Positions 596 to 61,823 of a stretch of 64,000 nt of DNA are shown one piece after another. Every line of letters starts with the position of its first letter. The stretch's first letter is position 1. The stretch is from a virus: the IMG/VR virus record IMGVR_UViG_3300028840_006907, positions 224,001-288,000 of that record; one strand, written 5' to 3'. Both the position numbers and the translations under genes were made by a program. Under the pieces are notes generated by a model, which did not search any database, had not been told where the DNA came from, and worked only from the letters and a program-made list of their open reading frames with translations.

Positions 596-604
596 GAGCT
601 GTCT

Positions 605-1141: not shown

Positions 1142-1143
1142 GA

Positions 1144-3036: not shown

Positions 3037-3039
3037 AAA

Positions 3040-9000: not shown

Positions 9001-10053
9001 TTAGGAATCGGTATAACTAATCCTCAGGAAATATTACATGTAGATGGTAATATCGTAGGATCATCTGGTTCTAATTTAGGGTCTGCTGCATTAAGATTTT
9101 CTAATCTTTATTTGGCTTCTTCTATAAACTATAATTCTGATCTTAATTTTGATTCAACAGGAACACATGTCACTTTTACAACAGGTGGTAATGTAGGTAT
9201 AGGTACTACAGATCCGCAAGCATTATTACATGTCTTTGATAGTACTAACGGTGGTGATGTTGAAGTTATAATTACTAATGACTATTATAGTGTTAGTTCG
9301 TTGGATGAAACTACCAGTATAACTTTTCAAAATAGAGGTCACGATGGTAATAGGTATACTGCAAGTAGAATTCTTTGTGGAAAAGAAGGAGATTTTAGTA
9401 TCTCTGATAGAAAAGGTTATCTAGCTTTCCATACAGTTAATCAAAGTTCATTTGAAAGAATGCGAATTACTTATGATGGTAATGTCGGTATAGATACTAC
9501 GGCACCTTTAGATAAGCTTTCTGTCGAAGGTCAAATGTCTGTGACTCTTGCAGGTGATCGAAAATTTAAAGTAGATAGTACAGGACAAATTTATTCCGAT
9601 GCAGGTACATCAATATTTACTCCTGCTGACCTTGCTGAATGGTCAAAGGTAGAGGGGTATCTGGAAGAATATGAGTTAGGTATGGTAGTACAACAATCCT
9701 GTGTAGATTTAACCGTTAAGCTAGCTGATAGCCCTTCTGAGAGAGTATATGGTGTGGTTACAAACCGTGCCACATTTTTGGGAAGTCTTACTGGTATTGA
9801 TAAGAAAATATTAAAAGAATTAACGGATAGTGAGATAGAAGATGAGTTCAATGCCAAAAAAATAGCAATGGTAGGGCATGTTCAAGTTCTGGTAAAGGGT
9901 ACCGTTAATATAGGTCAGTCATTGACTCTTTCTGATAAGAAAGGAATAGCACGGGGAGCTACAACTTTTGAAGAAAAAGCTCTGGCTCTTGGTATTGCAA
10001 GAGAAAGTTATGATTCAACCGATATAGGACTTATTGAGGCGAGATTATTATAA
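3040..10053 (+). CDS. giant virion fibre protein (BNR/Asp-box propeller + collagen-like tract + GIGT..LHV fibre repeats + C-terminal capping-type module)
   Basis: GTG start 6 nt after AGGAGG; 2,337 aa. About nt 3460-4300 carries repeated Asp-box-like motifs (TTDSGNSW, TINDGTSW, TTDGTTW, TTNGGTSW, TDDAGSTW). About nt 6070-7175 is uninterrupted G-X-Y (GVQGETGIQGLQG...). Nt 7390-9520 has ten copies of [VI]GIGxTxPxxxLHV spaced by conserved GGDVGIxxNN...GSVDETASLxYRFG...MRI units. The C-terminus reads ADLAEWSKVEG...GMVV...YGVVT...VGHVQVLVKG, resembling fibre C-terminal autoprocessing or chaperone modules. Confidence 0.85.
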   Translation: MSEVYQGDYAPNLYNEEKRYYLFQAQQLTNLTDAELRDLHNISNTYVRRTVQAQIGDCAIQDGYKIAENTSDKSNNFLITGGSGTLDDPGMYYLKGYRLFLLGDIAYKDQTDTGTITDDGYTKTILPALTTPTGVTSTLNSLSLSNPTLICCGDTSAIANSSDWGRNWVDRNAMTSQNLNGSSLGDASVGYAVGNVGAVLRTTDSGNSWINIRTSLPTLPTNYQNVNFFDAYFVNSSIGWITGQSGAILKTINDGTSWTVQGSGVTTSDLSGVHGTGLTDVWAVGSSGMVVKTTDGTTWSQQASGTLFNLSRVHAINTLVAYAVGNSGTIIKTTNGGTSWSALTSDTTENLRDVHFTDLNNGWAVGDNGTITRTDDAGSTWDSSTIASVDLRAVTFYDTTGFTAGGSGEIYRTLDNTNWVKYRTDYVYIDFHLAEVSGDATSGSEYIDTSLVDATVGYPSANRLRVVSDVKVSEGWPAPADYTNTDATLQHYIAPLASIERSVGTSDITSANITDLRTVVRTIGEIDAALKDGSIGTSAIADGAITPDKLDSTGDYTMGSLSILGDSSIAGDLTIGGILVVSDYRTSTIMDNLVVRGSAQLGDSTAPYEDSVNIYGNITQVLDSTKIAYDIQTSSTTDASPIIKIVSDSTGSVWHVESKSQTTSSLFDATTQNMGYDFHLNHLGYEGGLFKLRDDASNHTITISKTAPGFRGSVLDVTSNSNDPTINIVNRALSDSTSLSIDQTHGTMITLNTLGDASGIDIYSQGSGRDLHIDHSGTLGIAVDITSSSAQVAMNLVNQMGPAVVITQNGDDEALLVLNKDSTTLGRALEINHRGSDVGLGVYNTGTGMGQLISHVGDSTHPALDIYVAGNEKGPALRINKANDETGEGIRVWNQGFSESLRLIQDRTDSSATVLLIESQSIGYDVSSSNWNIDSSGNIYTAGSITSDSTATVTSSKFAFDSTYYMTSTGMYLDNSGYDSSNPAVAGRAFIESGFLRVSDGTTASPIPSWGATGATGNTGATGSTGATGSGTQGTTGVQGSAGATGATGPAGTGSTGVQGVQGETGIQGLQGDTGVSLGATGLQGITGLRGFTGLQGQTGVAGETGVQGVQGQTGAFGGPPGETGVQGVQGNTGVQGTTGVQGSTGVQGIQGQTGIQGIQGNTGVQGIQGNTGVQGQTGVSGETGVQGTTGVQGIQGQTGIAGQTGIAGQTGVQGIQGIQGQTGAQGLTGVAGETGVQGSQGNTGVQGIQGHTGAGIQGTTGVQGLQGQTGSQGTTGIQGETGVGIQGQTGVAGVDGQTGIQGIQGTTGVQGETGTQGIQGNTGIQGTQGSTGVQGETGVGAQGTTGVQGIQGNTGVQGTTGVQGIQGQTGVQGTQGETGYIDSSSVNHNALLNLTVGDDHTQYAFLAGRTGGQTINGGDAASDVLTLQSTTDTTKGNIILNPISGDVPGKVGIGVTSPIYQLHVGEILDGGTVGICINNQYTANGSVDETASLIYRFGRPLSPQYRVAGQVLVGKEQDWWDYNSTDAYMAFHTTRDTISREQMRINAQGYVGIGTTNPQAKLHVTTFAQFDEGFSTNIGIGVTAPQAQLHVGESVTDGDVSIIVNNWSWTGGSVDETASLQFRFGPPPSNYSAGKISAHKTLDYMSFDNRDSYMTFSVVNNQSEVERMRILNDGKVGIGTTDPQERLHVIDRGQFDMGLQQPIGIGVTAPLAELHVGNSTNGGDVGIIINNQYNTTGSVDETASLIYRFGTVGSANYRVAARICAHKELDWQSFDNVDSALAFRTTRNQSENERMRITSEGDVGIGTVTPSEKLHVEGNIYTTNGFLAGGNIQIEGDFLGGTDGNSNLGSTSRRFNNLYMASSINYNSDLTFDCTGTHVTLTTGGNVGIGTTNPQGLFHVSDDTNGGDVGIVVSNRYIGGGSVDETASMIYRFGHPLGVANKVAARISAHKELDWANSNNTDAALIFWTTRDAVERQQMRIDSNGYLGIGITNPQEILHVDGNIVGSSGSNLGSAALRFSNLYLASSINYNSDLNFDSTGTHVTFTTGGNVGIGTTDPQALLHVFDSTNGGDVEVIITNDYYSVSSLDETTSITFQNRGHDGNRYTASRILCGKEGDFSISDRKGYLAFHTVNQSSFERMRITYDGNVGIDTTAPLDKLSVEGQMSVTLAGDRKFKVDSTGQIYSDAGTSIFTPADLAEWSKVEGYLEEYELGMVVQQSCVDLTVKLADSPSERVYGVVTNRATFLGSLTGIDKKILKELTDSEIEDEFNAKKIAMVGHVQVLVKGTVNIGQSLTLSDKKGIARGATTFEEKALALGIARESYDSTDIGLIEARLL
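6070..7175 (+). repeat. collagen-like (G-X-Y)n coding repeat inside the 2,337-aa fibre gene
   Basis: 9-bp-periodic GGN-NNN-NNN coding with degenerate ggagttcaaggaa-type units. It creates many shadow ORFs on both strands. Confidence 0.9.
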
Positions 10054-13828: not shown

Positions 13829-14470
13829 TTATCTATCAAATTCTGAAATTTTCATATCTTTTAAAGTGATTATATAATTCTTTTTAACACCACTCTCAAT
13901 GAATTTGATTAATGACTCCGATGCTACTGCCACTGCCAGAAGTATAATATTCCTGGCCAATGGGTACTCGCATACATCAGGAGCTATCGTGTCTTTTGGG
14001 ACGGTATAAGATTCGTTCCATATTATTTCCGCGTAATCCTGAGACAGCCCGACATGTAAACAGCTCAAACCATTATCCTTACAATATTGATAAACTAATT
14101 TTCGGCTAATATTATTATCAAAAGAATCGATGATAATATTTGGTTTTTTCAAATATTTACTCACAGTAGTTTTATTAAGTTCTTTACTATTGGCATTCAA
14201 AACAGTTTTGGTTGAAGCATATGCTCTCATTTTCATAGTCGCTACTTTGTAGGTACCTTTTTCATTTTGGTTCCAGATCTGGGTACCATTATTGTGAGGT
14301 TCAATTCTGTCTTTATCGATAATTGTAATTTCTTTGAATCCCTGTCGAACTAAATTATCACAAAGATTTGACCCTATTGCTCCGACACCACAGAGTGTAA
14401 TTGGGGTTGTTGATAATTTACCAACTACTTCTTCAGATCGATACATTCTTTCATGTATTAATAAATCCAT
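13829..14470 (-). CDS. E1-like (ThiF/MoeB-family) adenylation-domain protein
   Basis: 213 aa. Rossmann motif ITLCGVGAIGSNLCDNLVRQGFKEITIIDKDRIEPHNNGTQ (GxGxxG followed by D-x-D...N...Q), then IIDSFDNNISRKL (the DN of ThiF-type folds). A Cys sits in DVCEYPLARN. The usual Arg of N-x-x-R-Q is Thr here. Confidence 0.75.
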   Translation of the reverse strand: MDLLIHERMYRSEEVVGKLSTTPITLCGVGAIGSNLCDNLVRQGFKEITIIDKDRIEPHNNGTQIWNQNEKGTYKVATMKMRAYASTKTVLNANSKELNKTTVSKYLKKPNIIIDSFDNNISRKLVYQYCKDNGLSCLHVGLSQDYAEIIWNESYTVPKDTIAPDVCEYPLARNIILLAVAVASESLIKFIESGVKKNYIITLKDMKISEFDR

Positions 14471-14474
14471 AATA

Positions 14475-14999
14475 TCATCCTATCCTAGCTATAATGCGAT
14501 CTTTTAACAAGACAAAGGGAATTTCAATACAACCTACAATCCGGTCTTTGTCTCTTTTATATAAATAAAATCTTTGTACTTCTGATTTGATTCCACATAA
14601 TAACGGTTTACCCAAAGCTTTGACCCAACCAGTCATAGTTTTATCATCTAAGGATGAAGGTTCCATTATATTACTTGGATGAGTATGATTAAAACCTACT
14701 ATTTTATTTCTGTCTCTGATTACTTTTTCCCAGTCAAAATCAACTGAACCAGGACCACCAGTGGATTCATAGATTAGTCTACCATAAATCCATTTGCAGT
14801 ATTTTTTACCATATATGATCCAACAATTTTCGTTAATTGTTTGTACTACTTCAATAGCTTCTATTGTTAATTTATTTTTATTGTAAATACCTTTATATGT
14901 TCGACCACATTCTGGGCATGGCATTCTTTGTGTTTCATTTTCTGTAATCCAGCATATATATTTTCCGCACTTACATGTAAATTCACTGCTTTCGGGCAT
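14475..14999 (-). CDS. zinc-ribbon + JAB/MPN+ (JAMM) metallopeptidase
   Basis: 174 aa. N-terminal CKCGKY...CPECGR. Exact JAMM signature GFNHTHPSNIMEPSSLD (H-x-H-x7-S-x2-D). Confidence 0.8.
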   Translation of the reverse strand: MPESSEFTCKCGKYICWITENETQRMPCPECGRTYKGIYNKNKLTIEAIEVVQTINENCWIIYGKKYCKWIYGRLIYESTGGPGSVDFDWEKVIRDRNKIVGFNHTHPSNIMEPSSLDDKTMTGWVKALGKPLLCGIKSEVQRFYLYKRDKDRIVGCIEIPFVLLKDRIIARIG

Positions 15000-15025
15000 A
15001 GGGATATATCCTTATTTTAGATTTT

Positions 15026-15925
15026 CTAATACAACGTTCTACTTATTTGATGAGTGCGTTGACCCTCTTTTATTACAGAAATTAATGCTTTTAAATCATA
15101 GTCTTTATCACCAACATGACCTGTTTCATGGTCGGTTAAACAGATGCCTGCAGTAATAACGTGGTGACTTTGATCTTTAGTAACAATAGTATTAAATTTC
15201 TCTCCATCGATTTCATATGTTACATAAATATGATCCGATTTTTCATCACTGCTCAGGTATTTACCTCCGGCAAATTCTATATCACGTTGAATCTTTGTTT
15301 TTTTCTTTTCTTCAAGTGCTCGTTCACGTTCTTCTTTGATTTTTAAATCGATTTTGTATTTTATGTTAAAAGCAATTTTCTCCTCCAATGTCAGACCAGA
15401 GAATTTTAATTTAGATGGGTCTCTGAATTCTTTCAGGGACTCATTAAGATAATCTGTAATCATCGGATCGGCTGACATATCCATTGAATCAAACCAGATA
15501 TTAGCTCCGTCAAATCGGCATAGACATTTAGAAAATGTTGTAACCATATCATCGAAAAGAAGAACTGGGTATAATTCTGATACTTTTAATCCCAGATGAT
15601 TACTCTTTATCGGGATCCCAAGATAAAAATCTTTCTTTTTATGTACTAAAACCATTCTTATCTTTGGTAAATATTTAAGATAAGATTGAATCTCATCTAT
15701 TTCCGCTAAATCTATTGCTTCAGCCCGTTTATTATCAAGTGCTTTGAATTTGTACCATCCCGGTTCTGTTTTCGGGATGTTTAAGTAATGAATAATTCCT
15801 TGAATACGGATAATGATTCGGTCATTATAATACACAGGAGAAATGATAGTCTTTTCAGTCATCATTTCTTCCTGTTTCCCTATTTTATCAATAAGGTTTA
15901 AAATATTATCTTTTCTTACGGTCAA
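15026..15925 (-). CDS. hypothetical protein with C-terminal E2/UBC-like active-site motif
   Basis: 299 aa. TTG start with GAGGAA 5 nt upstream, overlapping the upstream gene by 20 nt. The C-terminus YVTYEIDGEKFNTIVTKDQSHHVITAGICLTDHETG...LKALISVIKEG resembles the UBC motif HPN-x3-G-x-ICLD...SI-x-LL. The N-terminal ~220 aa has no recognised motif. Confidence 0.45.
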   Translation of the reverse strand: MTVRKDNILNLIDKIGKQEEMMTEKTIISPVYYNDRIIIRIQGIIHYLNIPKTEPGWYKFKALDNKRAEAIDLAEIDEIQSYLKYLPKIRMVLVHKKKDFYLGIPIKSNHLGLKVSELYPVLLFDDMVTTFSKCLCRFDGANIWFDSMDMSADPMITDYLNESLKEFRDPSKLKFSGLTLEEKIAFNIKYKIDLKIKEERERALEEKKKTKIQRDIEFAGGKYLSSDEKSDHIYVTYEIDGEKFNTIVTKDQSHHVITAGICLTDHETGHVGDKDYDLKALISVIKEGQRTHQISRTLY

Positions 15926-17462
15926 AAGATTTCCTCACGGGTAAAGGTGTATCCATGATCTCATATAGAAGATCGAGTTTTGATTTTCTGGATAGCAATG
16001 GAATTAATCCAGGCAATCCATAGTAATCGCTACCTTCAGGTTCATAGTAATCGAAAGGTATTCTAGCTTGTTTTAAATACATGCTGAATTCTTTACGACT
16101 CCATGAACTTGGAATGTAAATAATAGTAATAGTAGGAGTCACATTAAATTTTTTAACATAATTATCCCATATCTCAACGAAAAATGGATTATTATTTTCA
16201 CCTTCATCAGTGACCACTATTATCTGTTCTACATAATAGTTTTTTCTAATAAGGTAATCTAATGCTATACCTATGGAAGTCCCACCATTACTTTTTACAG
16301 GTCTGAAAGCCCTTTCCCAGGCAGACATATTCGGTTCATTAGCTGTGATCTCTCTGGCCATTGTATCAAAAGTAATAGCATAGAGAGGAGCTTCTGTAGC
16401 ACCTGAAATAAGAGCCGCAACATTTTTTCCGACTTCGATGGCTTGAGTCATAGAACCTGATTTATCGATAAAGACTGCAGTAGGTACTTTTATAACACCT
16501 TTCTTTTTAATTTGCTGATCTGCAATTTCATCGAGGATCTTTTGAGATTCCTCATTTTTGATCCGACCTGTTTTCTTTGCTTCTTTGGATTTTAAAGCTG
16601 ATACATTTTTAGCTTTTTTAGCTTTTTCCAATTTAGCCGTAATCAATGTTTTTGTATCCTCATTGTCCATGGCACCACGTTCTTCTAGGGAAGCATAGTT
16701 ATTAATAACTTCCTGTGGAGACATAGCATTGATTAGAGCAATCAGAATTGTAGGAGTGATTTGATCAACCAAACCTACAGCCACCGTATAAGGTACTTTA
16801 TGTTCTATAATCAGCTTTGCCACTTCAGTCGGATTATCAGCTTGTGCTATTTTTTCGAAAACATTTAATTTACTGTCCGTAGGACGTTCATTTCCGAAAA
16901 GAATCTTCTGAGCACGTTCACTAGGTGCTATACGAAGAGTAGCATATAATCCTTTAAGATCTTTTGGACTTTTTAGGGCAATAGCATCAAAAAGATCGTT
17001 GTTGGTTTCAATATATTGAAGAAATTTCTCAACATCCCTTTTAAAGGCAGTAGGAATATTTTTGTAAAGACCTACATTTTTTTCTTCAATTTTTACTTCA
17101 TCGATCATTTTTTTCTTCATTTTTATTTTTTTGCCCGTTTTATTTCTGATCTTTATTTTTTTACCTTTAATAAAACCGACCACACGTCTTTTAAGATATA
17201 CAGGTATTTCCCTGAAGAGGGCTAGCCCAACTTCACGGTTGTCAAGAAATTCATCAACAATAAGTGAACCGATGAATACTTCTTTATGATCCCGAATATC
17301 TCCATTCTTGTAGTACCAGCTTCCAAGGTGGGCATAAAACAGCGGATCTGCTTTTTGTAATTCAAGATGGGTATTTTTTAATTTATCTAGGTCCCGGTGA
17401 GGGCAACTCAGAAATGAGTTAAGCATGTTAACTCTGATATCATTTTCGTTAGCTTGGTTCAT
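15906..17462 (-). CDS. Ro60/TROVE-like protein with C-terminal vWA (MIDAS) domain
   Basis: 518 aa with AAGGAGG upstream. The C-terminal ~190 aa parallels the Ro60 vWA block by block: VFIDKSGSM (DxSxS), AITFDT, NGGTSIGIAL, QIIVVTDEGEN. The N-terminal ~330 aa is helical with ADPLFYAHLGSWYYKNGDIRDHKEVFIGSLIV, similar to the TROVE N-terminal signature. Contains a Lys-rich insert (GKKIKIRNKTGKKIKMKKK). Confidence 0.6.
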   Translation of the reverse strand: MNQANENDIRVNMLNSFLSCPHRDLDKLKNTHLELQKADPLFYAHLGSWYYKNGDIRDHKEVFIGSLIVDEFLDNREVGLALFREIPVYLKRRVVGFIKGKKIKIRNKTGKKIKMKKKMIDEVKIEEKNVGLYKNIPTAFKRDVEKFLQYIETNNDLFDAIALKSPKDLKGLYATLRIAPSERAQKILFGNERPTDSKLNVFEKIAQADNPTEVAKLIIEHKVPYTVAVGLVDQITPTILIALINAMSPQEVINNYASLEERGAMDNEDTKTLITAKLEKAKKAKNVSALKSKEAKKTGRIKNEESQKILDEIADQQIKKKGVIKVPTAVFIDKSGSMTQAIEVGKNVAALISGATEAPLYAITFDTMAREITANEPNMSAWERAFRPVKSNGGTSIGIALDYLIRKNYYVEQIIVVTDEGENNNPFFVEIWDNYVKKFNVTPTITIIYIPSSWSRKEFSMYLKQARIPFDYYEPEGSDYYGLPGLIPLLSRKSKLDLLYEIMDTPLPVRKSFDRKKR

Positions 17463-17483
17463 AATATCTCATCCTCCTTATGT

Positions 17484-17750
17484 TCAGGTTTCAATTTTTC
17501 CGAAAGTAGCATTTGGTCTAACTGTAATGTTACCATTTTTATGGTGTTCAACAACTAATTCAGCAAATTCTGATGCTGGTCTATCATAATGATCTACTAA
17601 AGCCAATTTAATTTGTTCACCAGTTATATTATCCGATGTGATCTCGGTTCCTGGTTCAATCCCGAGTTGTTCCCATCTGTCTTCTGGGAAAAGATCTTTG
17701 AGATTAATATCTTCAGTTTGACCATCATACATTATATGGACTTCACTCAT
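17484..17750 (-). CDS. small acidic protein, candidate ubiquitin-like (beta-grasp) modifier
   Basis: Start revised to the ATG at 17750, with GGAGG 5 nt upstream; the 109-aa version in the track lacks an RBS. 88 aa: MSEVHIMYDGQTEDINL...ITVRPNATFGKIET. First gene of the E2/JAB/E1 operon, with a Gly 4 residues from the C-terminus. Confidence 0.6.
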   Translation of the reverse strand: MSEVHIMYDGQTEDINLKDLFPEDRWEQLGIEPGTEITSDNITGEQIKLALVDHYDRPASEFAELVVEHHKNGNITVRPNATFGKIET

Positions 17751-17790: not shown

Positions 17791-17807
17791 ATTATACGAC
17801 ACGAGAT
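17791..17807 (-). promoter_or_regulatory. conserved promoter motif, family 1 (CTYCRTGTCGTATAAT)
   Basis: The minus strand reads ATCTCGTGTCGTATAAT, about 40 nt upstream of the 17750 start. The same TGTCGTATAAT core recurs at 18956-18972 and 61807-61823 on the plus strand. Confidence 0.6.
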
Positions 17808-17888
17808 TAACATTTCATTAAGTAAAAAATTGGGTAGAATATAAATTCTTGTGTGTCATCATGGTAAATAACTTTTTTAAAAAAATTA

Positions 17889-17917
17889 TTGACACACTTA
17901 AAATTTATGGTTATATT
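17889..17917 (+). promoter_or_regulatory. sigma70-type promoter of the RNA operon
   Basis: TTGACA (17889-17894), a 17-nt spacer, then TATATT (17912-17917). The predicted start near 17924 coincides with the first base of the RNA1 closing helix. Confidence 0.7.
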
Positions 17918-17923
17918 ATTGAC

Positions 17924-18063
17924 AGTTCTGCACTCTAACTTTTGATGCTTACATAGAGAAAATAGCTCAGTTGGTCAGAGCGCGAGATTTAGGTTCTTGA
18001 AGTCTTCGGTTCAATTCCGAATTTTCTTACCATAAAATTAGCACCTTCAACTTGTGCAGAACT
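17924..18063 (+). ncRNA. structured RNA unit 1: shared closing module enclosing a complete tRNA
   Basis: Perfect 10-bp terminal helix AGTTCTGCAC (17924-33) / GTGCAGAACT (18054-63). Family module just inside it: 5' TCTAACTTTTGATGCTTACA and 3' GCACCTTCAACTT. The cargo is the tRNA at 17956-18032. Confidence 0.6.
17956..18032 (+). tRNA. tRNA, anticodon UAG (Leu by the standard table), class-I shape, CCA encoded
   Basis: Hand-folded cloverleaf. Acceptor GAGAAAA/TTTTCTT (G1-U72). D-arm GCTC-AGTTGGTCA-GAGC. Anticodon arm CGAGA-TTTAGGT-TCTTG (U33, anticodon TAG at 17990-92, G37). 5-nt variable loop AAGTC. T-arm TTCGG-TTCAATT-CCGAA, A73, then CCA. Confidence 0.85.
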
Positions 18064-18081
18064 ACTTAAACCAAGAAATAA

Positions 18082-18199
18082 AAGTCAGACATTCTAATTA
18101 TTAGGGCGTACATGGCGTTAAAACCATGCTTCCTGCAGAAATCAGGAAGCAATCTCTGGGCCAAGGCTCAGGGGCGCACTGATGACTTATGTCTGACTT
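18082..18199 (+). ncRNA. structured RNA unit 2: shared closing module enclosing three hairpins
   Basis: 11-bp terminal helix AAGTCAGACAT / ATGTCTGACTT. Module 5' TCTAATTATTAGGGCGTACA and 3' GCGCACTGATGACTT. Interior hairpins: CATGG-cgttaaaa-CCATG, CTTCCTG-cagaaat-CAGGAAG, and CTGGG-ccaagg-CTCAG. Confidence 0.55.
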
Positions 18200-18248
18200 A
18201 ATATAGATTGTAAAGTGTTGTAAAATAAATTTGATCTTTGAAAATTAT

Positions 18249-18430
18249 AGGATAATGCCTTCTAACCTGTTGGGCTTACAAATTTTACTGGTTCGACTCC
18301 AGGTTCCGCCTCTCGGTCCTTTTGTAAAGATTGTAAAGGATCAGGAGGCGGAACAAGCCGGGTGGTCTGGCGATTGAATGCAAATCAATTTATTTGAAAT
18401 TAACGCTCTTTTAACTTGGGCATTTATCCT
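18249..18430 (+). ncRNA. structured RNA unit 3: closing module + circularly permuted tRNA-like core (Y-RNA/YrlA-like)
   Basis: Terminal helix AGGATAATGCC / GGGCATTTATCCT (one bulge), followed by TTTTTT. Order inside: T-arm CTGG-TTCGACT-CCAG (18288-302); a 20-bp closed acceptor-like hairpin (18303-354); AA; D-arm GCC-GGGTGGTCT-GGC; and hairpin ATTGA-ATGCAAA-TCAAT. Confidence 0.6.
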
Positions 18431-18477
18431 TTTTTATAGTAATTTATAATTTTATATAAAGTGATCTTTGAAAATAT

Positions 18478-18660
18478 GAGGTAAGTGCCTCCTAACATAA
18501 CGGGCTTACAAATTAATAGGGTTCAACTCCCTGTTCCCCCGCCTAAGTCTTTGTCATATAATGATTAAGATTTGGGCGGGGGAACGAGCTGGGTGGTTCA
18601 GCAATCAACGTTTAATTGATGAAAAACATTTTTACGCTCTTTTAACTTAGGCACTTACTC
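18478..18660 (+). ncRNA. structured RNA unit 4: closing module + circularly permuted tRNA-like core
   Basis: Terminal helix GAGGTAAGTGCC / GGCACTTACTC, followed by TTTTT. T-arm AGGG-TTCAACT-CCCT. Closed acceptor-like hairpin GTTCCCCCGCC...GGCGGGGGAAC. D-arm GCTG-GGTGGTT-CAGC. Hairpin ATCAA-CGTTTAA-TTGAT. Confidence 0.6.
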
Positions 18661-18681
18661 TTTTTATTAAATTGAAATTAC

Positions 18682-18858
18682 AAGGAGCACCTTCTAACCT
18701 GTTGGGCTTACAAGTTATTCGGGGTTCAAATCCCTGTCCCGGCACTAGGTTGATTCCCTAAAAGTCAACCCAGTGCCGGGATAGCCAAATTGGTAAAGGC
18801 GACTATATTGAACATAGTAAACAAAACTATCTACGCTCTTTTAACTTGGGTGCTCTTT
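18682..18858 (+). ncRNA. structured RNA unit 5: closing module + near-perfect circularly permuted tRNA
   Basis: Terminal helix AAGGAGCACC / GGTGCTCTTT. T-arm CGGGG-TTCAAAT-CCCTG (18720-36). Acceptor 3' strand TCCCGGC + A73, a linker hairpin, then acceptor 5' strand GCCGGGA (18775-81). U8 A9, D-arm GCCA-AATTGGTAA-AGGC, and anticodon arm ACTAT-ATTGAAC-ATAGT (UGA at 18809-11). Confidence 0.6.
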
Positions 18859-18899
18859 ATATATTTCTCGCAAAAGGAATACAGGGTGAAACAGGAGTA

Positions 18900-18940
18900 T
18901 AGGGATTAAGAAGAAATTTTTGATCCCTATTTTATTTTTT
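18900..18940 (+). terminator. intrinsic terminator closing the RNA operon
   Basis: Stem TAGGGAT (18900-06) / ATCCCTA (18923-29), then TTTTATTTTTT. The loop is rather large (16 nt). Confidence 0.5.
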
Positions 18941-18955
18941 CCCGGATTTTCCCTA

Positions 18956-18972
18956 CCTTCATGTCGTATAAT
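18956..18972 (+). promoter_or_regulatory. conserved promoter motif, family 1
   Basis: CCTTCATGTCGTATAAT, 44 nt upstream of the 19016 start. 16 of 17 positions match the copy at 61807-61823. Confidence 0.6.
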
Positions 18973-19015
18973 TATTAGATAAAGATTTTCTAAACATTTT
19001 ATTAGGTAATTAATT

Positions 19016-21643
19016 ATGACATGTAAAATTTGTAAGAGTAATCTTTCTTATACTTTTGATAAATTTCCAGCTTATAAGTTCTGTCCTTGTTGTAACCTTT
19101 ATTTTCAAGAAGAATTTCCACCAAAGATATTTGAAGGTCCTGATGAGAATAACGGGCATGGTCCCGGTACAGGTCATTTAATGTCTGAGGATGAAAAGGA
19201 AATAAATAAAAATTTCGCTAATGTTCTCTATGATATGTTTATTCCTCGAACTCTTCTAGATATAGGTTGTAAATACCCCTATTTTATTAGTGTGTTAAAA
19301 GATAAAATAGATGTATTAGGAATTGATCCTATTTCAGAGATCTTGAAATATGGAGAAGAATTGGGTGTCTCTGTAATTCGTGATGATTTTGAAGATATGA
19401 ATATTACTCCTTTAAAAAATAAATTCGATTTAATAACTTTGATACATACTTTCGAACATTTTTATAGCCCAATAGAGACCATGAAAAAGATAATCGAATG
19501 TCTTACTCATAGAGGAGTGCTTTTAATAAGAATTCCAAACATAGATATTGAAGGTATAGAAAGAGATTTTACTGATCATCATGTTCAAATCCATCCCTTT
19601 ATATATTCAACACAAGCAATGTATCGAATCGCTCAAAAATTTGATTGTGAAATTTTTAGGGTCGATGATATTATTGGATATGGCCAGAGCGATTTTTATT
19701 TAAGGAAGAAAAGGGACCATCTTTCTTTATCGGTTTGTATGATTGTAAAAGATGAGGAAAAGAATGTTTCTGATTGTTTGGAGAGTATAAAAGATGTAGC
19801 TGATGAAATCATAGTTGTGGATACCGGATCTATAGATAATACCAAAGAAATAGTATCCAAATATACAACAAAGATATATGACTTTAAATGGATTGATGAC
19901 TTTTCTGCTGCTAGAAATCACTCTTTAAGTAAGGCAACGGGTGACTTTATTTTATGGCTTGATGCTGATGATATTGTAGAAAATCCAGAAAAGATTAATG
20001 AAATATTAAAAAATGATGATGCTAAGATATTTAATTTTAATATTAAATATGGAAATGATGTCTTTAGTCAGGCTAGACTATTTAGGAATTTTTATAATAT
20101 AAAATTTTCTGGTAGAGTTCATGAATATCCTGTAATCGATAATTTATATATAAAAGATACTGAAGTTAATGTAATTCATAAAACCGAAAAACATTCAACA
20201 GAAAACCGTTCTGATAGAAATCTCCGTCTCCTTAAAAAAGAATACGAAGATAATCCGAACAATTCCCGGACACTTTTTTACCTGGCAAGTGCTTATAAAG
20301 AACTTACTCGTTGGGATGAAGCTATAGATTTTTATCGAAAATATTTAACTATTTCTATCTGGAAAGATGAGAGATGGATGGCTCAAAAGAATATTGGATG
20401 TATTCTTTCCTGGAATAGAAAATATGAAGAAGCCATTGAAGAATTGAAGAAGGCTATTGAAATAGATGATCGATGGGCTGAGTCATATTATTATATAGCT
20501 GAGTGTTATTTCTATTTAAAAAACCCTCAAGAATGTATAAACTGGTCTTTAAAAGCTATTGAGAAAAAGATGCCCGAATCACCTCTTTGGAAAGAGATCC
20601 CAATTTATAATGACGCACCATACCGTTATCTCTTTGCTTCTTATGGTTCTTTAGGTGATTTTGAGAAAGCATTGCATTATTGTAAGATAGCATCAGAAAA
20701 AGTTCCTGAGGATGAATGGCTTAAGGAAAGAGTCACTTATTTTGAGAATGCTACAAAAGGAGTTCCTGTTGTAGTCGAATGTAATCGGTGGGGGGCTTTG
20801 GGTGATTGTTTAATGACAACTGCATCTTTACGTGCCATTAAGCATAAGATTCCGGGTTGTTTTATAAGATATGTCACCCATCCTAGTATGTTCCCGATCC
20901 TTGAAGGGAATAAGTTTATAGATGAACTTGTATCAGAATCTAAATCTGAGAACTCAGAAAAGGTTTATTTCTCATATCCTGACAGTAAATCTCCTATTAA
21001 AGATGAAGGTTATCCTAATAAGCCTTTGAATCGCCATTTAGTACGTATATTCGCAGAATGTGCTGGTTTAAAAGAATTTGATAATCTAAAGATGGAGTGT
21101 ACTCTTACAAAAGATGAGGAGAAATCAGGTCAGTCATTGAGATCTCGATTTAAGAAATATGTGACTCTTCATATCCATTCGGGTTGGTCTGAGTATAAGG
21201 ATTGGTATAATGATCGTTGGGAGACTGTTGTAGATGAGTTATTTAAAAGAGGTTACGTGGTTGTTCAGCTAGGCCATAAAGATGAGGGTCTCTTAGTTGG
21301 TACTGTGGATTATAGAGGCCATACTATAAAAGAAGCTATCTCTGCAATAAAATATGCTGATATTCATTTAGGAGTGGATTCATTTACAAACCATGCCTCG
21401 GCTACTGTGGGGACTCCTGCAGTTATTTTATTTGGGTCTACTTCTCCAACCGGTTCCGGGTATGATCAGAATATAAACCTTTATAAAGATTTGAAATGTC
21501 AGCCTTGTTATAAAGAATATGCATGGTCTAAGGATAATAAAGGAAAATGTCCTTATAATAAACTATGTATGGATCAGATCCTGGTTCAGGAAGTATTAGA
21601 CGGTTTTATGAGATTAGAAAAAAAATTATTTATTGATGGATAA
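19016..21643 (+). CDS. multidomain glycan-modifying enzyme (Zn-ribbon, SAM-methyltransferase-like, GT2, TPR, GT9/heptosyltransferase-like)
   Basis: 875 aa. CKICKS...CPCCN. Methyltransferase motif I-like LLDIGCKYPYF. GT2 motifs LSVCMIVKDEEKNV...IIVVDTGSIDNT and WLDADD. TPR-like LFYLASAYKELTRWDEAIDFYRKYL. GT9-like NRWGALGDCLMTTASLRAIKHKIPG and GVDSFTNHAS. Confidence 0.75.
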   Translation: MTCKICKSNLSYTFDKFPAYKFCPCCNLYFQEEFPPKIFEGPDENNGHGPGTGHLMSEDEKEINKNFANVLYDMFIPRTLLDIGCKYPYFISVLKDKIDVLGIDPISEILKYGEELGVSVIRDDFEDMNITPLKNKFDLITLIHTFEHFYSPIETMKKIIECLTHRGVLLIRIPNIDIEGIERDFTDHHVQIHPFIYSTQAMYRIAQKFDCEIFRVDDIIGYGQSDFYLRKKRDHLSLSVCMIVKDEEKNVSDCLESIKDVADEIIVVDTGSIDNTKEIVSKYTTKIYDFKWIDDFSAARNHSLSKATGDFILWLDADDIVENPEKINEILKNDDAKIFNFNIKYGNDVFSQARLFRNFYNIKFSGRVHEYPVIDNLYIKDTEVNVIHKTEKHSTENRSDRNLRLLKKEYEDNPNNSRTLFYLASAYKELTRWDEAIDFYRKYLTISIWKDERWMAQKNIGCILSWNRKYEEAIEELKKAIEIDDRWAESYYYIAECYFYLKNPQECINWSLKAIEKKMPESPLWKEIPIYNDAPYRYLFASYGSLGDFEKALHYCKIASEKVPEDEWLKERVTYFENATKGVPVVVECNRWGALGDCLMTTASLRAIKHKIPGCFIRYVTHPSMFPILEGNKFIDELVSESKSENSEKVYFSYPDSKSPIKDEGYPNKPLNRHLVRIFAECAGLKEFDNLKMECTLTKDEEKSGQSLRSRFKKYVTLHIHSGWSEYKDWYNDRWETVVDELFKRGYVVVQLGHKDEGLLVGTVDYRGHTIKEAISAIKYADIHLGVDSFTNHASATVGTPAVILFGSTSPTGSGYDQNINLYKDLKCQPCYKEYAWSKDNKGKCPYNKLCMDQILVQEVLDGFMRLEKKLFIDG

Positions 21644-22250: not shown

Positions 22251-25200
22251 ATGGCCAAGACAAAAAGGAAATGGATTGAGCTGGATTGGTACAATCCCAA
22301 TGCCTTACGTGCACAAGACATACCTTACGATCAAACCGAAAGTGTAAAAGATGCTATAGATAGAGCTGCCTCTGGAGTTCTCGGTCCGACGGGGACCACG
22401 GGTTCGACCGGTTCAACAGGTTCGACGGGTCCAACGGGTCCGACGGGAGCCACGGGTGCGACGGGAGCAGGAATCCAGGGTGAAACCGGAGTCGCTGGAG
22501 TTCAAGGAGCTACCGGAACCGGTGGTGGTGGAGATACTGGTGTCCAGGGTGAGACCGGTTTACCCGGAGCCACAGGAATCCAAGGTACAACCGGTATCCA
22601 GGGAACTACAGGAATCCAAGGTGAAACTGGAATCCAGGGACATACAGGTACAGTTGGAACAACGGGTGTTCAAGGAGAAACCGGTTCTCAGGGTACTACT
22701 GGAATCCAGGGAGAAACTGGAGTAAAAGGTGAAACTGGTATTCAAGGTCAAACCGGTATAGCTGGTGGAGCAGGATTTCCAGGAGCAACTGGAGTCCAGG
22801 GCGAAACCGGAGTCCAAGGAACTACTGGGGTTCAAGGGGAAACCGGGGTTCAAGGAACCACAGGAGTAGCCGGAGCAACCGGAGTCCAGGGAACTACTGG
22901 CGTCCAGGGAACTACTGGCATCCAAGGTGAAACGGGTGTCCAGGGAGATACTGGAGTTGGTGCCACTGGAATCCAAGGAACCACAGGTATCCAGGGTCAA
23001 ACCGGTGTTCAAGGTATCACCGGAGCTTATGGTGGTCCTCCTGGAGAAACTGGTGTCAAGGGAGAAACCGGAGTACAGGGGGCTACTGGAATCCAAGGTC
23101 TTCAAGGATTGCAGGGAACCAAAGGTGAGACCGGAACACAAGGTATTCAAGGCCAGACCGGAGTTCAGGGAGAAACTGGAGTTCAAGGGCAGACTGGTAC
23201 AGGTGCTCCAGGAGCCACTGGAGTTCAAGGGCAGACTGGTATCCAGGGAACCACTGGAATAGGTTTAGGTTCAACAGGAGTAGCGGGAGCAACTGGAATT
23301 CAAGGTACTACCGGAGTTCAAGGTAGGACTGGAGTCCAAGGATTTACCGGAGCTGCTGGTTTAGGTGAAACTGGTATCCAAGGAGCTACCGGAGTCCAGG
23401 GTGCCACAGGTATTCAAGGGACTACTGGTGCAGGAATCCAAGGAGCCACAGGTATTAGTGGTGACACGGGAGTTCAAGGAGCCACAGGAATTAGAGGTAC
23501 TACTGGTGCAGGAATCCAAGGAGCCACGGGGGTTCAGGGCATTCAAGGTCAAACTGGAGCCCAGGGCGAAACCGGAGTCCAGGGTGAAACCGGAATAGAA
23601 GGTTCTCAATTTGCAGGATTTAATTATAAAGCAAAAACAGACAATCAATCTGATACAGATCCTGGTATAGGAAATTTAAAGTGGAGTGCTGTAGCTCAAG
23701 TCACATCTAGTGAGCTTTATGTGGATGATGCTGACGTTAATTCTACGGATCTCAGTAATTTTTACCTCACTTTAAAAGCTGCCGACTCTTTACGTATTGT
23801 TCGTATGGAAGATCCTTCTCAGTATCAGATTTTTAATATAACAAACGTTACTGATAGAACCGGATGGTTCCGTTTATCTGTTACACCTGTTGTTTCAGGT
23901 GGTTCGACTTTTAGTTTAAATGATAATATCATACTGATATTTAGTATATCAGGTCCTAGAGGTCAGACCGGAGTAAAAGGTGAGACTGGAATTCAAGGAA
24001 CTACAGGTGTTGCCGGAGCCACAGGAGTCCAAGGTCAAACTGGAATTCAGGGTCAAACTGGAATCCAGGGCATACAGGGCCAGACTGGAATTCAAGGACA
24101 AACTGGTATTCAAGGTCAAACAGGAATCCAAGGTCAGACAGGTGTTGGCGCTCAGGGTGCTACTGGTGTAGCTGGTCAAACCGGGGTCCAGGGAGAAACT
24201 GGGATACAAGGTCAGACTGGTGCAGGAATCCAGGGAACTACTGGTGTTCAAGGCGTTCAAGGATTAACAGGTGTGCAAGGCCAGACAGGTGCCGGAATCC
24301 AAGGTGAAACCGGAGTCCAGGGTACTCAAGGTTTAACCGGTATACAGGGTCAGACAGGTGCTGGAATCCAAGGAGAGACTGGTGTTCAGGGAAACACTGG
24401 GGCTTTTGGTGGTCCTCCCGGAGAAACTGGTGTTCAGGGAGAAACTGGTGCACAAGGTTTAACTGGAGTCCAAGGTCAAACCGGAGCAGGTATTCAGGGA
24501 GCCACTGGTATTCAAGGAGTTACTGGAGTTCAAGGCCAAACCGGTGCTGGTATTCAAGGAGTCACTGGAATCCAAGGACAAACTGGTATACAGGGTCAGA
24601 CAGGAGTAGCAGGTCAGACCGGAGTCCAAGGAATACAAGGCCAGACAGGAGTAGCAGGTCAGACCGGAGTTCAAGGAATTCAAGGACAAACCGGAATAGC
24701 AGGTCAGACCGGAGTTCAGGGTATACAAGGTCAAACTGGAATTCAAGGGCAGACTGGTGCTGGAATCCAAGGTACAACTGGAGTAGCCGGAGCTACAGGA
24801 GTTCAGGGAATTCAAGGTCAAACAGGAGCTGGAATCCAAGGTACAACTGGAGTCCAGGGAACTACAGGAGTTCAAGGTGAAACTGGTACTGGTATTCAGG
24901 GAGAAACTGGTACGCAAGGTATTCAGGGTCAAACCGGAATTCAGGGACAGACTGGGATTCAAGGTAATACTGGTGTAAAAGGTGAAACCGGAGTTCAGGG
25001 TTTTCCAGGTCCTCAGGGTACGAAAGGTGATACTGGTGCTCAAGGTATTCAAGGTGAGACAGGAACTCAAGGAATTCAGGGCCAAACTGGAGTAGCTGGA
25101 GAAACTGGAGTTCAGGGTCAAACGGGTACTCAAGGAATTCAGGGTCAGACTGGTGTAGCTGGTGCAACTGGTGCGGGAATTCAAGGTCAAACTGGTGTTC

Positions 25201-61806: not shown

Positions 61807-61823
61807 CCTTCGTGTCGTATAAT
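61807..61823 (+). promoter_or_regulatory. conserved promoter motif, family 1
   Basis: CCTTCGTGTCGTATAAT, 43 nt upstream of the 61866 start. Confidence 0.6.

Follow-up and report, generated by a model that had tools for sequence, protein, structure and literature searches.

A conserved huge-phage gene block that may join ubiquitin-like protein conjugation to a Ro60-type ribonucleoprotein

A block of five minus-strand genes in a huge phage, together with structured RNAs beside it, is a real, conserved module, apparently undescribed so far. [quoted passage not shown] Protein tagging and an RNA-protein particle in one gene block is a combination not reported before in this form.

Five genes kept in order across large viral contigs

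The window (the whole 64,000-nt stretch analysed) contains terminase, portal, protease and major head genes, which bears out the phage origin proposed for the element, and the module lies within the structural gene region. Each of the five genes claimed in the sequence-only reading was found at its coordinates, and every protein motif quoted there was located in the 299-aa, JAB and E1 proteins.

17484-17750, minus strand: Ubl candidate, 88 aa, first gene of the block
15906-17462, minus strand: Ro60-like TROVE-vWA protein, 518 aa
15026-15925, minus strand: OB-OB-helix-Cys-domain protein, 299 aa, TTG start
14475-14999, minus strand: JAB/JAMM metalloprotease, 174 aa, with N-terminal Zn ribbon
13829-14470, minus strand: minimal E1-like adenylating enzyme, ThiF fold, 213 aa

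Since the spacers between successive genes measure 21 nt, -20 nt (an overlap), 26 nt and 4 nt, the cassette is tightly packed and operon-like. Another 15 distinct loci, almost all of them large viral contigs, keep the same gene order, a co-occurrence far beyond chance that confirms the expected linkage of the genes in related genomes. In the near loci the Ubl, Ro60-like and 299-aa genes directly follow one another, and this core is never separated. The JAB and E1 genes lie 0-8 kb downstream of it (L002-L005, L008-L011, L014, L015, L018 and L019), parted from it by inserted genes in several loci, and their linkage to the core persists despite protein identity of only 40-60%. JAB was searched for and not found in L012 and L013, nor was E1 in L016; in L006, L007 and L017 the sequence ends before the block is complete. 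Viral contigs carrying relatives of the Ro60-like protein (at least 1086 found) or homologues of the 299-aa protein (664 family representatives) reach 512-595 kb, and a search of 185,579 prokaryotic genomes gave only one match, an 8-kb MAG contig from the Guaymas Basin (L015).

A precursor-like small protein, an E1-type domain and a JAB protease

The 88-aa ORF could start as far up as 17813; we favour the ATG at 17750 because the homologues and a GGAGG box support it. In every near locus this gene opens the block, and its predicted product has the precursor-like C-terminus expected of the Ubl candidate first proposed: an invariant ...NGNITVRPxAxFG84 and, behind it, the tail KIET. All 19 distinct homologues have the aromatic-Gly, with 0-4 unconserved residues after the Gly, and the most divergent copies (L019 and L012) stop exactly at it. 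Nothing in Pfam, NCBIfam, PHROG or PDB matched the protein, and comparison with ThiS, MoaD, Ub and Urm1 showed no similarity in sequence. That the terminus is aromatic-Gly, not Gly-Gly, counts against the Ubl reading.

The proposal of a ThiF/E1 adenylation domain in the 213-aa protein is backed by matches to Pfam ThiF (1.9e-23, above cut-off), NCBIfam ThiF (PRK08644, 2e-19) and thiF_fam2 (3e-15), the PADLOC Cap2-type E1-E2 model (3e-16) and ThiF-type/UBA6 entries in PDB (1e-7). The window copy has the motifs G28-V-G30-A-I-G33, D52-K-D54...N60-N-G-T63-Q64 and D115-S-F-D118-N, and the family conserves Y10-R11, GxGxxG, K75, DxFDN and a loop Cys (Cys167, within D[VI]CEYPLARN).

For the 174-aa protein, the Pfam Prok-JAB match (1.6e-4, 21.9 bits) falls under the curated cut-off of 25 and PADLOC JAB models give 4e-4, though the JAMM site first noticed by eye is intact: the catalytic motif E57...H105-x-H107-x7-S115-x2-D118, here with the string H105-T-H107-PSNIMEP-S115-S-L-D118, is kept in homologues. 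The N-terminal Zn ribbon (C9/C11/C28/C31) is present only in the window's copy; the aligned homologues are without it, and the L019 protein has a Cys-rich C-terminal tail in its place. On these comparisons we consider the assignments of the 88-aa protein as a Ubl candidate made as a precursor, of the 213-aa protein as a ThiF/E1-type adenylation domain and of the 174-aa protein as a JAB protease to be well founded.

The Arg-to-Thr change noted in the NxxRQ motif of the E1 is real and family-wide: of 10 aligned homologues, 9 have Thr at the position of Thr63 and L012 has Cys, and L019 too has Thr. This Arg touches ATP phosphates in MoeB, ThiF and Uba enzymes, and its loss is a point against a Ubl-activation reading.

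An invariant Cys behind two OB folds

The suggestion that E1 and E2 are encoded as separate minimal proteins was right for the stand-alone, 213-aa E1 and failed for the 299-aa protein, in which two OB-fold barrels of the RNA-binding S1/IF1/S17 type occupy ~150 residues. Any E2-like part could only be the last ~90 residues, a small alpha-beta4-alpha domain that includes the quoted string (SHHVITAGICLTD...LKALISVIKEG, at residues 252-288) and Cys262, which is present in 150/150 homologues and is the only 100% conserved polar residue. Fold matches of this domain to UBC/RWD/UEV proteins, Cap2 and CdnG-E2 among them, are weak yet recurrent. Neither sequence nor profile comparison gave a significant match between the domain and any E2 family, and hhalign against UBCs gave a probability of 0.7%. 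The His previously aligned with HPN varies, 78/150 homologues having Leu there and 50/150 His, and the domain is without an HPN-type His or Asn. We therefore regard the E2 assignment as tentative. A single protein, P0315, fuses the Cys domain to a JAB domain.

The conserved acidic residues D273, D277 and E287 together with K250, and the resemblance of the tandem N-terminal OB folds to exosome, Dis3L2 and CSD proteins, would fit an OB-fold-guided nuclease or other nucleic-acid enzyme, whose C-terminal domain would have a degenerate restriction-endonuclease-like (Hjc-like) fold and work with the Ro60-like RNP, with Ubl, E1 and JAB regulating it only indirectly. We give this very little credence: the PD-(D/E)xK pattern is absent, with Val and Ser/Thr preceding K250; E228, D231 and K250 are conserved at 68-83% only; a Cys as the sole invariant polar residue is atypical for such a fold; and UBC/RWD/UEV-type chains are far commoner than nuclease folds among the fold matches.

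Comparison with host conjugation systems

CBASS encodes Cap2, an E1-E2 fusion, and Cap3, a JAB protease, and Bil comprises BilA (Ubl), BilB (E2), BilC (JAB) and BilD (E1). Like them, the phage cassette combines an E1 of ThiF type and a JAMM/JAB protease with a small Gly-ending protein and a candidate carrier that bears a Cys, and the best PADLOC models for its E1 and JAB are of Cap2 and Cap3 type. It differs from both in being carried by a phage rather than in a host defence island, in its stand-alone E1 with Thr for Arg, in a candidate E2 domain that is unrelated in sequence to Cap2 and BilB and sits behind two OB folds, and in having a Ro60-like protein and Y-like RNAs as integral parts; unlike CBASS, it has no CD-NTase.

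These best PADLOC models, the presence of the module in a phage structural gene region, and host Bil systems that reportedly tag phage tail proteins (Hor et al. 2024) all speak for a counter-defence set against host Ubl-based immunity (Bil, CBASS Cap2/Cap3). The phage JAB would strip host Ubl tags from virion proteins or CD-NTases, Ubl and E1 would be decoys, and the Ro60-like RNP would be a separate RNA-quality-control hijack merely sharing the operon. We find this improbable. Two independent functions predict the opposite of what is seen, a core of Ubl, Ro60-like and 299-aa genes that is tightest while JAB and E1 drift to 8 kb; the Cap2 and Cap3 model scores, like the NCBIfam scores of the phage proteins, all lie far under family cut-offs; and an invariant Cys carrier protein is superfluous for a decoy.

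PRTRC cassettes (ParB-related, ThiF-related) of mobile elements also combine ThiF-like, JAB-type and small Ubl-like proteins. Membership was rejected at a PRTRC_ThiF score of 32.7 bits against a cut-off of 144.75, and no other PRTRC protein family was matched.

A Ro60-like protein next to covarying structured RNAs

The 518-aa protein is, from its profile matches, a remote Ro60 (TROVE-vWA) relative, as had been proposed. Its family profile (A2) matches Ro60 of Thermus phage phiLo (9L5Y/9KOP) at 8e-6 and Ro60 9NEN at 2.7e-5, and its MIDAS motif is intact (D333-x-S335-x-S337, T395, D419). Pfam gave weak vWA matches for the family, with vWA_Ro60 matched by 3/11 members, and TROVE was not matched. 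The gene is the most conserved of the block: identity is 54-67% for the near loci and falls to 35-45% for L012, L013 and L019.

RNA partners had been suspected near this gene, and covarying structured RNAs, putative partners, do adjoin the cassette:

17925-18063, plus strand: Y-RNA-like unit around a tRNA-like module (model R1, stem, UCUAAC)
17956-18032, plus strand: tRNA-Leu(TAG)-like gene, inner module of this unit (ARAGORN; Rfam 65.9 bits)
18252-18425, plus strand: Y-RNA-like structured RNA, copy 1
18482-18656, plus strand: Y-RNA-like structured RNA, copy 2
18684-18855, plus strand: Y-RNA-like structured RNA, copy 3

Copy 1, which model R1 matches by construction, has a closing stem, a UCUAAC/GGGCUUACAA motif, a T-arm-like GGUUCGACUCC and a long hairpin. 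R1 also matches 17925-18061 end to end (E 8e-4), where the tRNA-Leu(TAG)-like gene lies inside a 9-bp closing stem (GUUCUGCAC/GUGCAGAAC), with a UCUAAC motif also flanking it. In the fold common to the three copies, 18 of the 44 consensus pairs show compensatory changes. Members of this ~175-nt family lie at most about 0.6 kb from the Ubl gene in 8 loci (L002, L003, L004, L009, L011, L015, L017 and L018; E 1e-11 to 3e-6), and in a 27-sequence alignment 91% of cells pair, versus 63% in shuffles, with double changes in 41/44 pairs. No Rfam family matched the Y-RNA-like RNAs.

As in known Ro60/Y RNA RNPs (Rsr-YrlA-PNPase RYPER of Deinococcus/Salmonella; phiRo60), a TROVE-vWA protein with MIDAS is directly adjoined by several RNAs that have a closing stem plus a T-arm resembling that of tRNA. 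In contrast to those RNPs, the homology is remote, the RNAs match no Rfam family, and the known bacterial partners PNPase and RtcB are not in the cassette. To our knowledge, no known Ro60 locus has a Ubl, E1, JAB or OB-OB-Cys protein. The best solved-structure match, phiRo60 (9KOP, 9L5Y), binds two upstream Y-like RNAs (Yrl1/Yrl2) and host PNPase (PMC12135203). Nidhogg viruses of Helarchaeota, from the Guaymas Basin like the L015 MAG contig with its copy of the cassette, are reported to encode Ro60 (TROVE + vWA) and three ThiF/E1-like proteins in one genome, handled as unrelated features (Rambo et al., bioRxiv 10.1101/2021.07.29.454249); that paper describes no Ubl, JAB, Cys-domain protein or adjacent RNAs.

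Possible functions: sulfur transfer or RNP-guided tagging

tRNA or tRNA-like genes always adjoin the cassette. They would suit an E2-independent, dual-use Ubl system of the SAMP/UbaA, TtuB/TtuC or Urm1/Uba4 type, in which the E1-activated Ubl would become a thiocarboxylate sulfur carrier thiolating the tRNA-like RNAs or tRNAs and may also join proteins without any E2, the 299-aa protein being an RNA-binding adaptor or a persulfide relay via Cys262 and no E2. The E1 is closest to small ThiF proteins, the OB folds are of RNA-binding type, the E2 assignment is weak, and a JAB protease paired with a tailed Ubl is typical also of sulfur-carrier pathways (QbsD/QbsE, CysO/Mec). The archaeal (SAMP/UbaA/HvJAMM1), Thermus (TtuB/TtuC) and eukaryotic (Urm1/Uba4) systems share with the cassette a minimal E1, a Ubl, a JAMM protease and a link to tRNA-type RNA. 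We nevertheless hold this reading to be rather unlikely: a thiolase partner is missing, with PP-loop thiolase (TtuA/Ncs6 type), rhodanese domain and cysteine desulfurase absent among the conserved genes; the Ubl ends in aromatic-Gly, versus the Gly-Gly of ThiS, MoaD, Urm1 and TtuB; and UBC/RWD/UEV fold matches recur for the Cys domain. The cassette also differs from these systems in its additional invariant-Cys and Ro60-like proteins, and sequence similarity to their Ubls was not found.

In RNP-guided tagging, the reading that we prefer, JAB would trim the short tail past the aromatic-Gly of the 88-aa Ubl and later strip the Ubl off targets, which we infer from the intact JAMM site and from precedents of the QbsD, Cap3, HvJAMM1 and Atg4 type. 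The minimal E1 would adenylate the exposed Gly and then probably hold the Ubl on Cys167, from which it would be handed to Cys262, with the alpha-beta4-alpha domain, as its weak fold matches suggest, a minimal E2-like carrier. By analogy with the Y RNA that tethers Ro60 to S1/KH domains of PNPase, the OB folds would anchor the 299-aa protein to RNA, in all likelihood to the tRNA-like module within the neighbouring Y-like RNAs, whose closing stem would bind the Ro60-like ring; the RNP would thereby position the Ubl transfer step. The Ubl might be attached to the Ro60-like protein or to something recruited to the ring, be it a protein of host or phage or an RNA-bound factor, and the purpose would probably be to control host RNA surveillance or defence during infection.

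A promoter-like motif upstream of the block

17791-17807, minus strand: promoter-like motif ending TATAAT, ~40 nt upstream of the Ubl start codon

A conserved promoter had been proposed here. The motif scores 10/12 as a sigma-70-like site, and the same bases score also as a hairpin followed by a T-run. A second, related copy lies at 61807-61823, both contain the exact 14-mer TCGTGTCGTATAAT, and the 2 copies in the window compare with 0.08 expected.

A conserved five-gene block in huge phages

The window is part of a 469,617-bp contig (NCBI GCA_016840655.1, JAEORW010000001.1) that encodes the phage proteins listed here, and its source is a huge phage.

Phage genes in the window
1144-3036, large terminase
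43131-46484, portal
49421-50989, head protease
52565-53437, major head protein (PHROG, E = 3.5e-53)

The five minus-strand ORFs of the cassette, encoding in order an 88-aa ubiquitin-like (Ubl) candidate, a 518-aa Ro60-like protein, a 299-aa protein, a 174-aa JAB protein and a 213-aa E1, are exactly where a sequence-only reading of the window had placed them, and every sequence string quoted in that reading is present. In gene order, the first two are separated by 21 nt, the second and third overlap by 20 nt, and the last two intervals are gaps of 26 and 4 nt. For the 88-aa protein, we take the start at 17750, where a GGAGG box is present and the homologues agree; the mechanical ORF continues to 17813. 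A promoter-like 17-mer at 17791-17807 has an exact 14-mer, TCGTGTCGTATAAT, in common with 61807-61823 (two matches in the window vs 0.08 expected), and this motif may be a phage promoter consensus; the same bases at 17791-17807 also make up a hairpin followed by a T-run. The second copy (61807-61823, +) is located just 5´ of a 693-aa glycosyltransferase-methyltransferase gene (61866-63947).

Conservation of the block was assessed by tblastn and HMM searches on 15 further distinct loci, comprising 11 distinct IMG/VR contigs (after removal of two duplicates from the 13 retrieved), three metagenome contigs and a GenBank huge phage. The co-occurrence of the genes was borne out, with the Ubl, Ro60-like and 299-aa genes forming, in this order, a tight core in the near loci and the JAB and E1 genes either adjoining the core on its downstream side or, where other genes are inserted, lying as far as 8 kb downstream of it. 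Three loci (L006, L007 and L017) are without the rest of the block because their contigs end early. By tblastn and HMM searches, JAB was not found in L012 and L013, nor E1 in L016; no Ubl homologue was detected at the L013 locus. The genes 3´ of E1 in the window (127, 112, 91, 73 and 103 aa, and UvrD) were rejected as module members, as they are not conserved in the other loci.

The cassette has relatives on viral contigs of IMG/VR, with lengths reaching 467 kb, and on the 595-kb uncultured phage record LR756511.1, the sole find of the protein searches among GenBank phages; megablast of the region against GenBank phages gave zero matches. Among 185,579 prokaryotic genomes there was one match, an 8-kb MAG contig from the Guaymas Basin with all five genes. 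The module is essentially a huge-phage trait, and the Ubl set and the Ro60/Y RNA part are fixed in one conserved block found in hundreds to thousands of huge-phage sequences.

The E1 and JAB proteins

The 213-aa protein is a ThiF-fold adenylation domain (Pfam ThiF, 1.9e-23, 83.3 bits vs a cut-off of 28.1), which was also matched by small ThiF models of NCBIfam (2e-19), by Cap2-type E1-E2 models of PADLOC (3e-16) and, in the PDB, by the ThiF-type protein 9EGC and UBA6 (1e-7). Membership in a ThiF equivalog was rejected, given scores of 55-70 bits vs curated cut-offs of 152-275; since all of these cut-offs are missed by a wide margin, the E1 represents a family of its own. Conserved positions in an alignment of ten homologues are Y10-R11, G28xG30xxG33, D52/D54, K75 and D115xxD118N, and Cys167, within D[VI]CEYPLARN, is invariant (10/10) and is present as well in L019, a divergent locus. 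In the sequence, Cys167 follows DxxDN by ~50 residues, which we take to be the distance at which the crossover-loop Cys of MoeB and ThiF sits. The loss of the Arg of the NxxRQ motif noted in the sequence-only reading was confirmed: the residue is Thr63 in the window E1, Thr in 9/10 aligned homologues and in L019, and Cys in L012, and the Arg-to-Thr replacement is thus a trait of this E1 family.

The JAMM signature that had been assigned to the 174-aa protein is real, with E57...H105-x-H107-x7-S115-x2-D118 conserved in JAB homologues; the Pfam Prok-JAB score (1.6e-4) is below the cut-off. An N-terminal Zn ribbon (C9, C11, C28, C31) is restricted to the lineage of the window, and the L019 JAB has a Cys-rich C-terminal tail in its place.

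The 88-aa protein ends like a trimmed Ubl precursor

No library recognized the 88-aa protein (Pfam, NCBIfam, PHROGs, PADLOC and PDB sequence searches), and only five relatives were returned by a word-indexed protein search. Nevertheless informative is its C-terminus, NGNITVRPxAx[FWY]G, which ends in aromatic-Gly and is invariant in 19 distinct homologues. The number of unconserved residues after the invariant Gly is 0, 1, 2 or 4, and the chain stops exactly at the Gly in six homologues, among them the two most divergent copies (L019 and L012). Judged from sequence, we consider this terminus diagnostic, having the pattern of protease-trimmed Ubl precursors. Atg4 cleaves a short tail from behind the terminal Phe-Gly of Atg8/LC3, and for QbsE the trimming protease is the JAB protein QbsD. 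Comparison of the 88-aa family with Ub/NEDD8, ThiS, MoaD and Urm1 by hhalign gave probabilities <1% and was uninformative.

The 299-aa protein combines predicted tandem OB folds with a candidate Cys carrier

A word-indexed search returned 54 relatives of the 299-aa protein, and a full HMM scan with a profile of its C-terminal domain returned 664 cluster representatives (E ≤ 1e-3), of which nearly all share one ~280-aa layout. Nothing meaningful was found for the protein in Pfam, NCBIfam, PHROGs, PADLOC or PDB sequence searches, Pfam gave nothing at E ≤ 10 for 39 members of the family, and a PDB profile search with the Cys domain (the last ~90 residues, including Cys262) did not reach any E2 family. 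Two matches that arose in the 299-aa and 88-aa searches, PADLOC Cas6 (0.0045) and MpAFP (9e-5, a repeat artefact), were dismissed.

An AlphaFold model of the protein (pLDDT 85.8) predicts a helix followed by two beta-barrels (26-73 and 88-148), then a long helix (180-218) and finally a small C-terminal unit in which four meander strands (222-258) lead through a loop into a helix (278-290). We read the first half as a nucleic-acid-type tandem OB module, and the whole as a new three-part protein, here OB-OB-Cys, which is a new family. Fold matches of the modelled Cys domain (scores in parentheses) included Cap2 (4.3), the UEV of Tsg101 (4.1), the UBC 1YRV (4.0), Ubc13 (3.9, 18% identity), CdnG-E2 (3.8), BRE, RWDD3 and Ube2K, together with the kinetochore-type RWD proteins Kre28, Spc25, Mcm21 (two chains), Csm1 and Mad1. 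Each of these model-based matches is weak singly, but UBC, RWD and UEV folds are strongly enriched, given that their superfamily accounts for well below 1% of the library.

Among 150 diverse members of the family, Cys262 is conserved in all (150/150), within A259-G260-x-C262-L263, and D273, D277-L278, V284 and E287 are conserved downstream of it, whereas Cys136 shows no conservation. A nuclease reading of the Cys domain is a poorer fit, and we regard it as highly improbable; in the model, the last ~90 residues plausibly constitute a minimal UBC/RWD-like Cys carrier. The sequence-only reading had gone further and compared this region with the active site of a UBC E2. The HPN-type His implied by that comparison did not hold up, the position being Leu in 78/150 members, and the protein has neither the HPN motif nor the detectable sequence homology of a canonical UBC E2 (Pfam UQ_con). 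An hhalign comparison of the Cys domain with four eukaryotic UBCs gave a probability of 0.7% and was uninformative; the alignment set Cys262 on the UBC Cys. What stands of the E2 claim is the weak, recurrent resemblance to UBC, RWD and UEV folds, while a sequence bridge is missing, and we use "E2" as a hypothesis.

One metagenomic relative, P0315 (396 aa), has the Cys domain (147-230) joined to a JAB domain (287-330; Prok-JAB 1.9e-7, above the cut-off). The fusion gives weak support for a link of the Cys domain with JAB, and P0315 is a single, somewhat odd sequence with an Arg-rich middle segment that may be out of frame or an assembly artefact.

A remote Ro60-like protein adjoins Y-like RNAs

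For the 518-aa protein, Pfam gave only a weak vWA domain without a match to TROVE, and vWA_Ro60 was weakly matched by 3/11 members of the family. A profile of 11 homologues, however, matched phiRo60, the Ro60 of Thermus phage phiLo (PDB 9L5Y/9KOP, 8e-6), and Ro60 (9NEN, 2.7e-5) across the C-terminal half of TROVE and the vWA domain, with an extra weak match near the N-terminus. The MIDAS residues (D333-x-S335-x-S337, T395, D419) are invariant. The family profile and the invariant MIDAS bear out the assignment of this protein as a Ro60-like TROVE-vWA protein, with the homology being remote because Pfam TROVE itself is unmatched. The gene is the best conserved of the block (54-67% identity in near loci), and at least 1086 relatives, about 520 aa each, were found.

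Phage Ro60 proteins have been described (PMC7824862, PMC12135203). Two Y-like RNAs are encoded immediately upstream of the phiRo60 gene, and the protein binds both of them and recruits PNPase of the host (PMC12135203). There is therefore precedent for a phage Ro60 RNP as such, and the Ro60 and Y-like RNA part of the block belongs, as a remote member, to a known kind.

The 1.2-kb gap beside the cassette (17814-19015, plus strand) contains four units of one RNA family.

Y-like RNA units beside the cassette
17925-18063 (+), fourth unit, with a tRNA-Leu(TAG)-like gene (17956-18032) within a 9-bp closing stem, and a UCUAAC motif
18252-18425 (+), Y-like repeat 1, ~175 nt
18482-18656 (+), Y-like repeat 2, ~175 nt
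18684-18855 (+), Y-like repeat 3, ~175 nt

Each repeat comprises a closing stem, the motif UCUAAC...GGGCUUACAA, a GGUUCRAnUCC resembling a T-arm, and one long and two small hairpins, and the three have 44 consensus pairs in common, 18 of them with compensatory changes. The tRNA-Leu(TAG) gene is the only tRNA gene of the window, and the unit at 17925-18063 may represent either a Y-RNA-type unit whose module is a true tRNA or a precursor from which the tRNA is processed.

Members of the RNA family in related loci were found only with a covariance model built from the three repeats of the window, as nhmmer with the three copies gave nothing there. In L002, L003, L004, L009, L011, L015, L017 and L018, the model located members no more than about 0.6 kb from the Ubl gene (E from 1e-11 to 3e-6, often in multiple copies), and it matches the tRNA-Leu unit too (E = 8e-4). 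In a 27-sequence alignment, 91% of cells pair vs 63% in shuffles and ~42% with partners slid, and 41/44 pairs show double changes, though these numbers lean towards structure because the alignment was fitted to the model. Rfam at E ≤ 5 gave no Y RNA, YrlA or other family. The claim that structured RNAs adjoin the cassette is thus upheld; given their Y-type closing stem and inner tRNA-like module, they are putative partners of the Ro60-like protein.

Several other RNA features were noted. Between the tRNA-Leu unit and the repeats, 18085-18206 (+, 122 nt) has a closed three-hairpin, cloverleaf-like fold (-48.3 kcal/mol, z = -6.6, 0/200 shuffles as good) with no Rfam match, and next to its closing stem, on the 3´ side, is a UCUAAU that closely resembles the UCUAAC of the Y-like repeats. 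T-loop-like GGTTCRANTCC elements are found 0.2-2.5 kb upstream of the cassettes of L002-L018, near almost every cassette (for example L004 5435-5568, L011 4571-5146 and L012 3845-4355); all are on the cassette strand in the loci scanned, and several are not called as tRNAs. Several of the ARAGORN "tRNAs" upstream of other cassettes have odd anticodons (aat, att, atc, 2-nt loops, SeC), and some overlap Y-like model matches, as at L004 5435-5568. The RNAs of the window and of L015 are encoded on the strand opposite to the cassette.

A proposed Ubl pathway and its rivals

In its working, for which the chemistry is inferred here, the block is like the Cap2/Cap3 and Bil Ubl systems, though it is a member of none of them. 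Membership in CBASS type II was rejected, as the block has no CD-NTase and its E1 is a separate protein; curated NCBIfam scores were 55 bits vs 320 for 6A-MBL_cap2_3 and 13 bits vs 200 for Cap3. Membership in PRTRC was rejected with 32.7 bits vs a cut-off of 144.75 for TIGR03736 (PRTRC_ThiF) and no other PRTRC model matched. A ThiS/MoaD-type sulfur carrier pathway was also rejected on the Phe/Trp/Tyr-Gly terminus and the ThiF equivalog scores; rhodanese, PP-loop and desulfurase genes are not among the conserved block genes.

The main rival to conjugation is an E2-less system similar to Urm1, SAMP or TtuB, with the Ubl serving additionally, or exclusively, as a sulfur carrier for the tRNA-like RNAs. 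Such a system would agree with the RNA context and with an E1 that is ThiF-like, but no thiolase or sulfurtransferase is present and the terminus is other than Gly-Gly, leaving this explanation rather unlikely in our estimation. To our knowledge, prokaryotic Ubl conjugation has so far been described as a host defense or mobile-element function; a pure counter-defense decoy is a poorer fit to the block and seems to us quite improbable.

In the conjugation pathway that we favor, for which we infer the whole of the chemistry, the binding and the biological purpose, the Ubl tail would be trimmed by JAB, Gly84 would be adenylated by E1, with a thioester probably formed at Cys167, and the Ubl would be transferred to Cys262 of the OB-OB-Cys protein. 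A Y-like RNA would then bring the OB folds and the Ro60-like ring together, a step modelled on the Y RNA that tethers Ro60 to the S1/KH domains of PNPase. It is conceivable, if unlikely, that the Y-like RNA scaffolds an RNA-templated Ubl ligase in which the closing stem holds the ring, the tRNA-like module holds the carrier and the RNP replaces a protein E3, the target being the ring, a ring-threaded misfolded-RNA-bound protein, or RNA. The virus would in that case encode a ubiquitin-like tagging machine guided by RNA.

Descriptions of Ro60/Y RNA particles present them as devices for RNA quality control, and the one association between protein tagging and Ro60 that we know of in animals is the autoantigen pair of Ro52/TRIM21 and Ro60. 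Should the block work in the proposed way, it would represent the first complete phage-encoded set for Ubl activation, transfer and removal; a new minimal E2-like carrier would be defined, and protein tagging would for the first time be tied mechanistically to a Ro60 RNP, all in a module of six components, five small proteins and one RNA. Ro60 and ThiF/E1-like genes have both been reported in Nidhogg Asgard viruses, where they were treated as unrelated features (bioRxiv 10.1101/2021.07.29.454249). No description of the combined module was found in the literature, for which coverage was incomplete, and an earlier description is possible.

Other genes near the cassette and in related loci

The window encodes giant fibre-like proteins with collagen repeats and laminin-G. 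Two giant ORFs flank the cassette region, 3040-10053 (+, 2337 aa) and 22251-31487 (+, 3078 aa), both with many collagen triple-helix repeats (Pfam Collagen 2e-47 and 6e-225, respectively), which account for the GC-rich stretches of the window; the 2337-aa ORF includes, in addition, a BNR/YCF48-like beta-propeller. Immediately past the RNA array, 19016-21643 (+) encodes an 875-aa fusion protein with Pfam matches to a SAM methyltransferase, a GT2 glycosyltransferase, TPR and GT9 (heptosyltransferase-like).

RNA genes also adjoin block genes in two related loci: in L008, a 467-kb relative, a tmRNA gene (15054-15402, +; tag peptide AEDYSYAMAEAA) is directly 3´ of the E1 gene, and in L013, a distant relative, an array of 15 tRNA genes (295-6034, +) stops ~50 nt before the Ro60-like gene. 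Further along the window, 60608-61783 (+) encodes a 391-aa protein with two HNH/endonuclease VII-type modules, which also matches PHROGs annotated as sigma-70 decoy and Srd anti-sigma factor.
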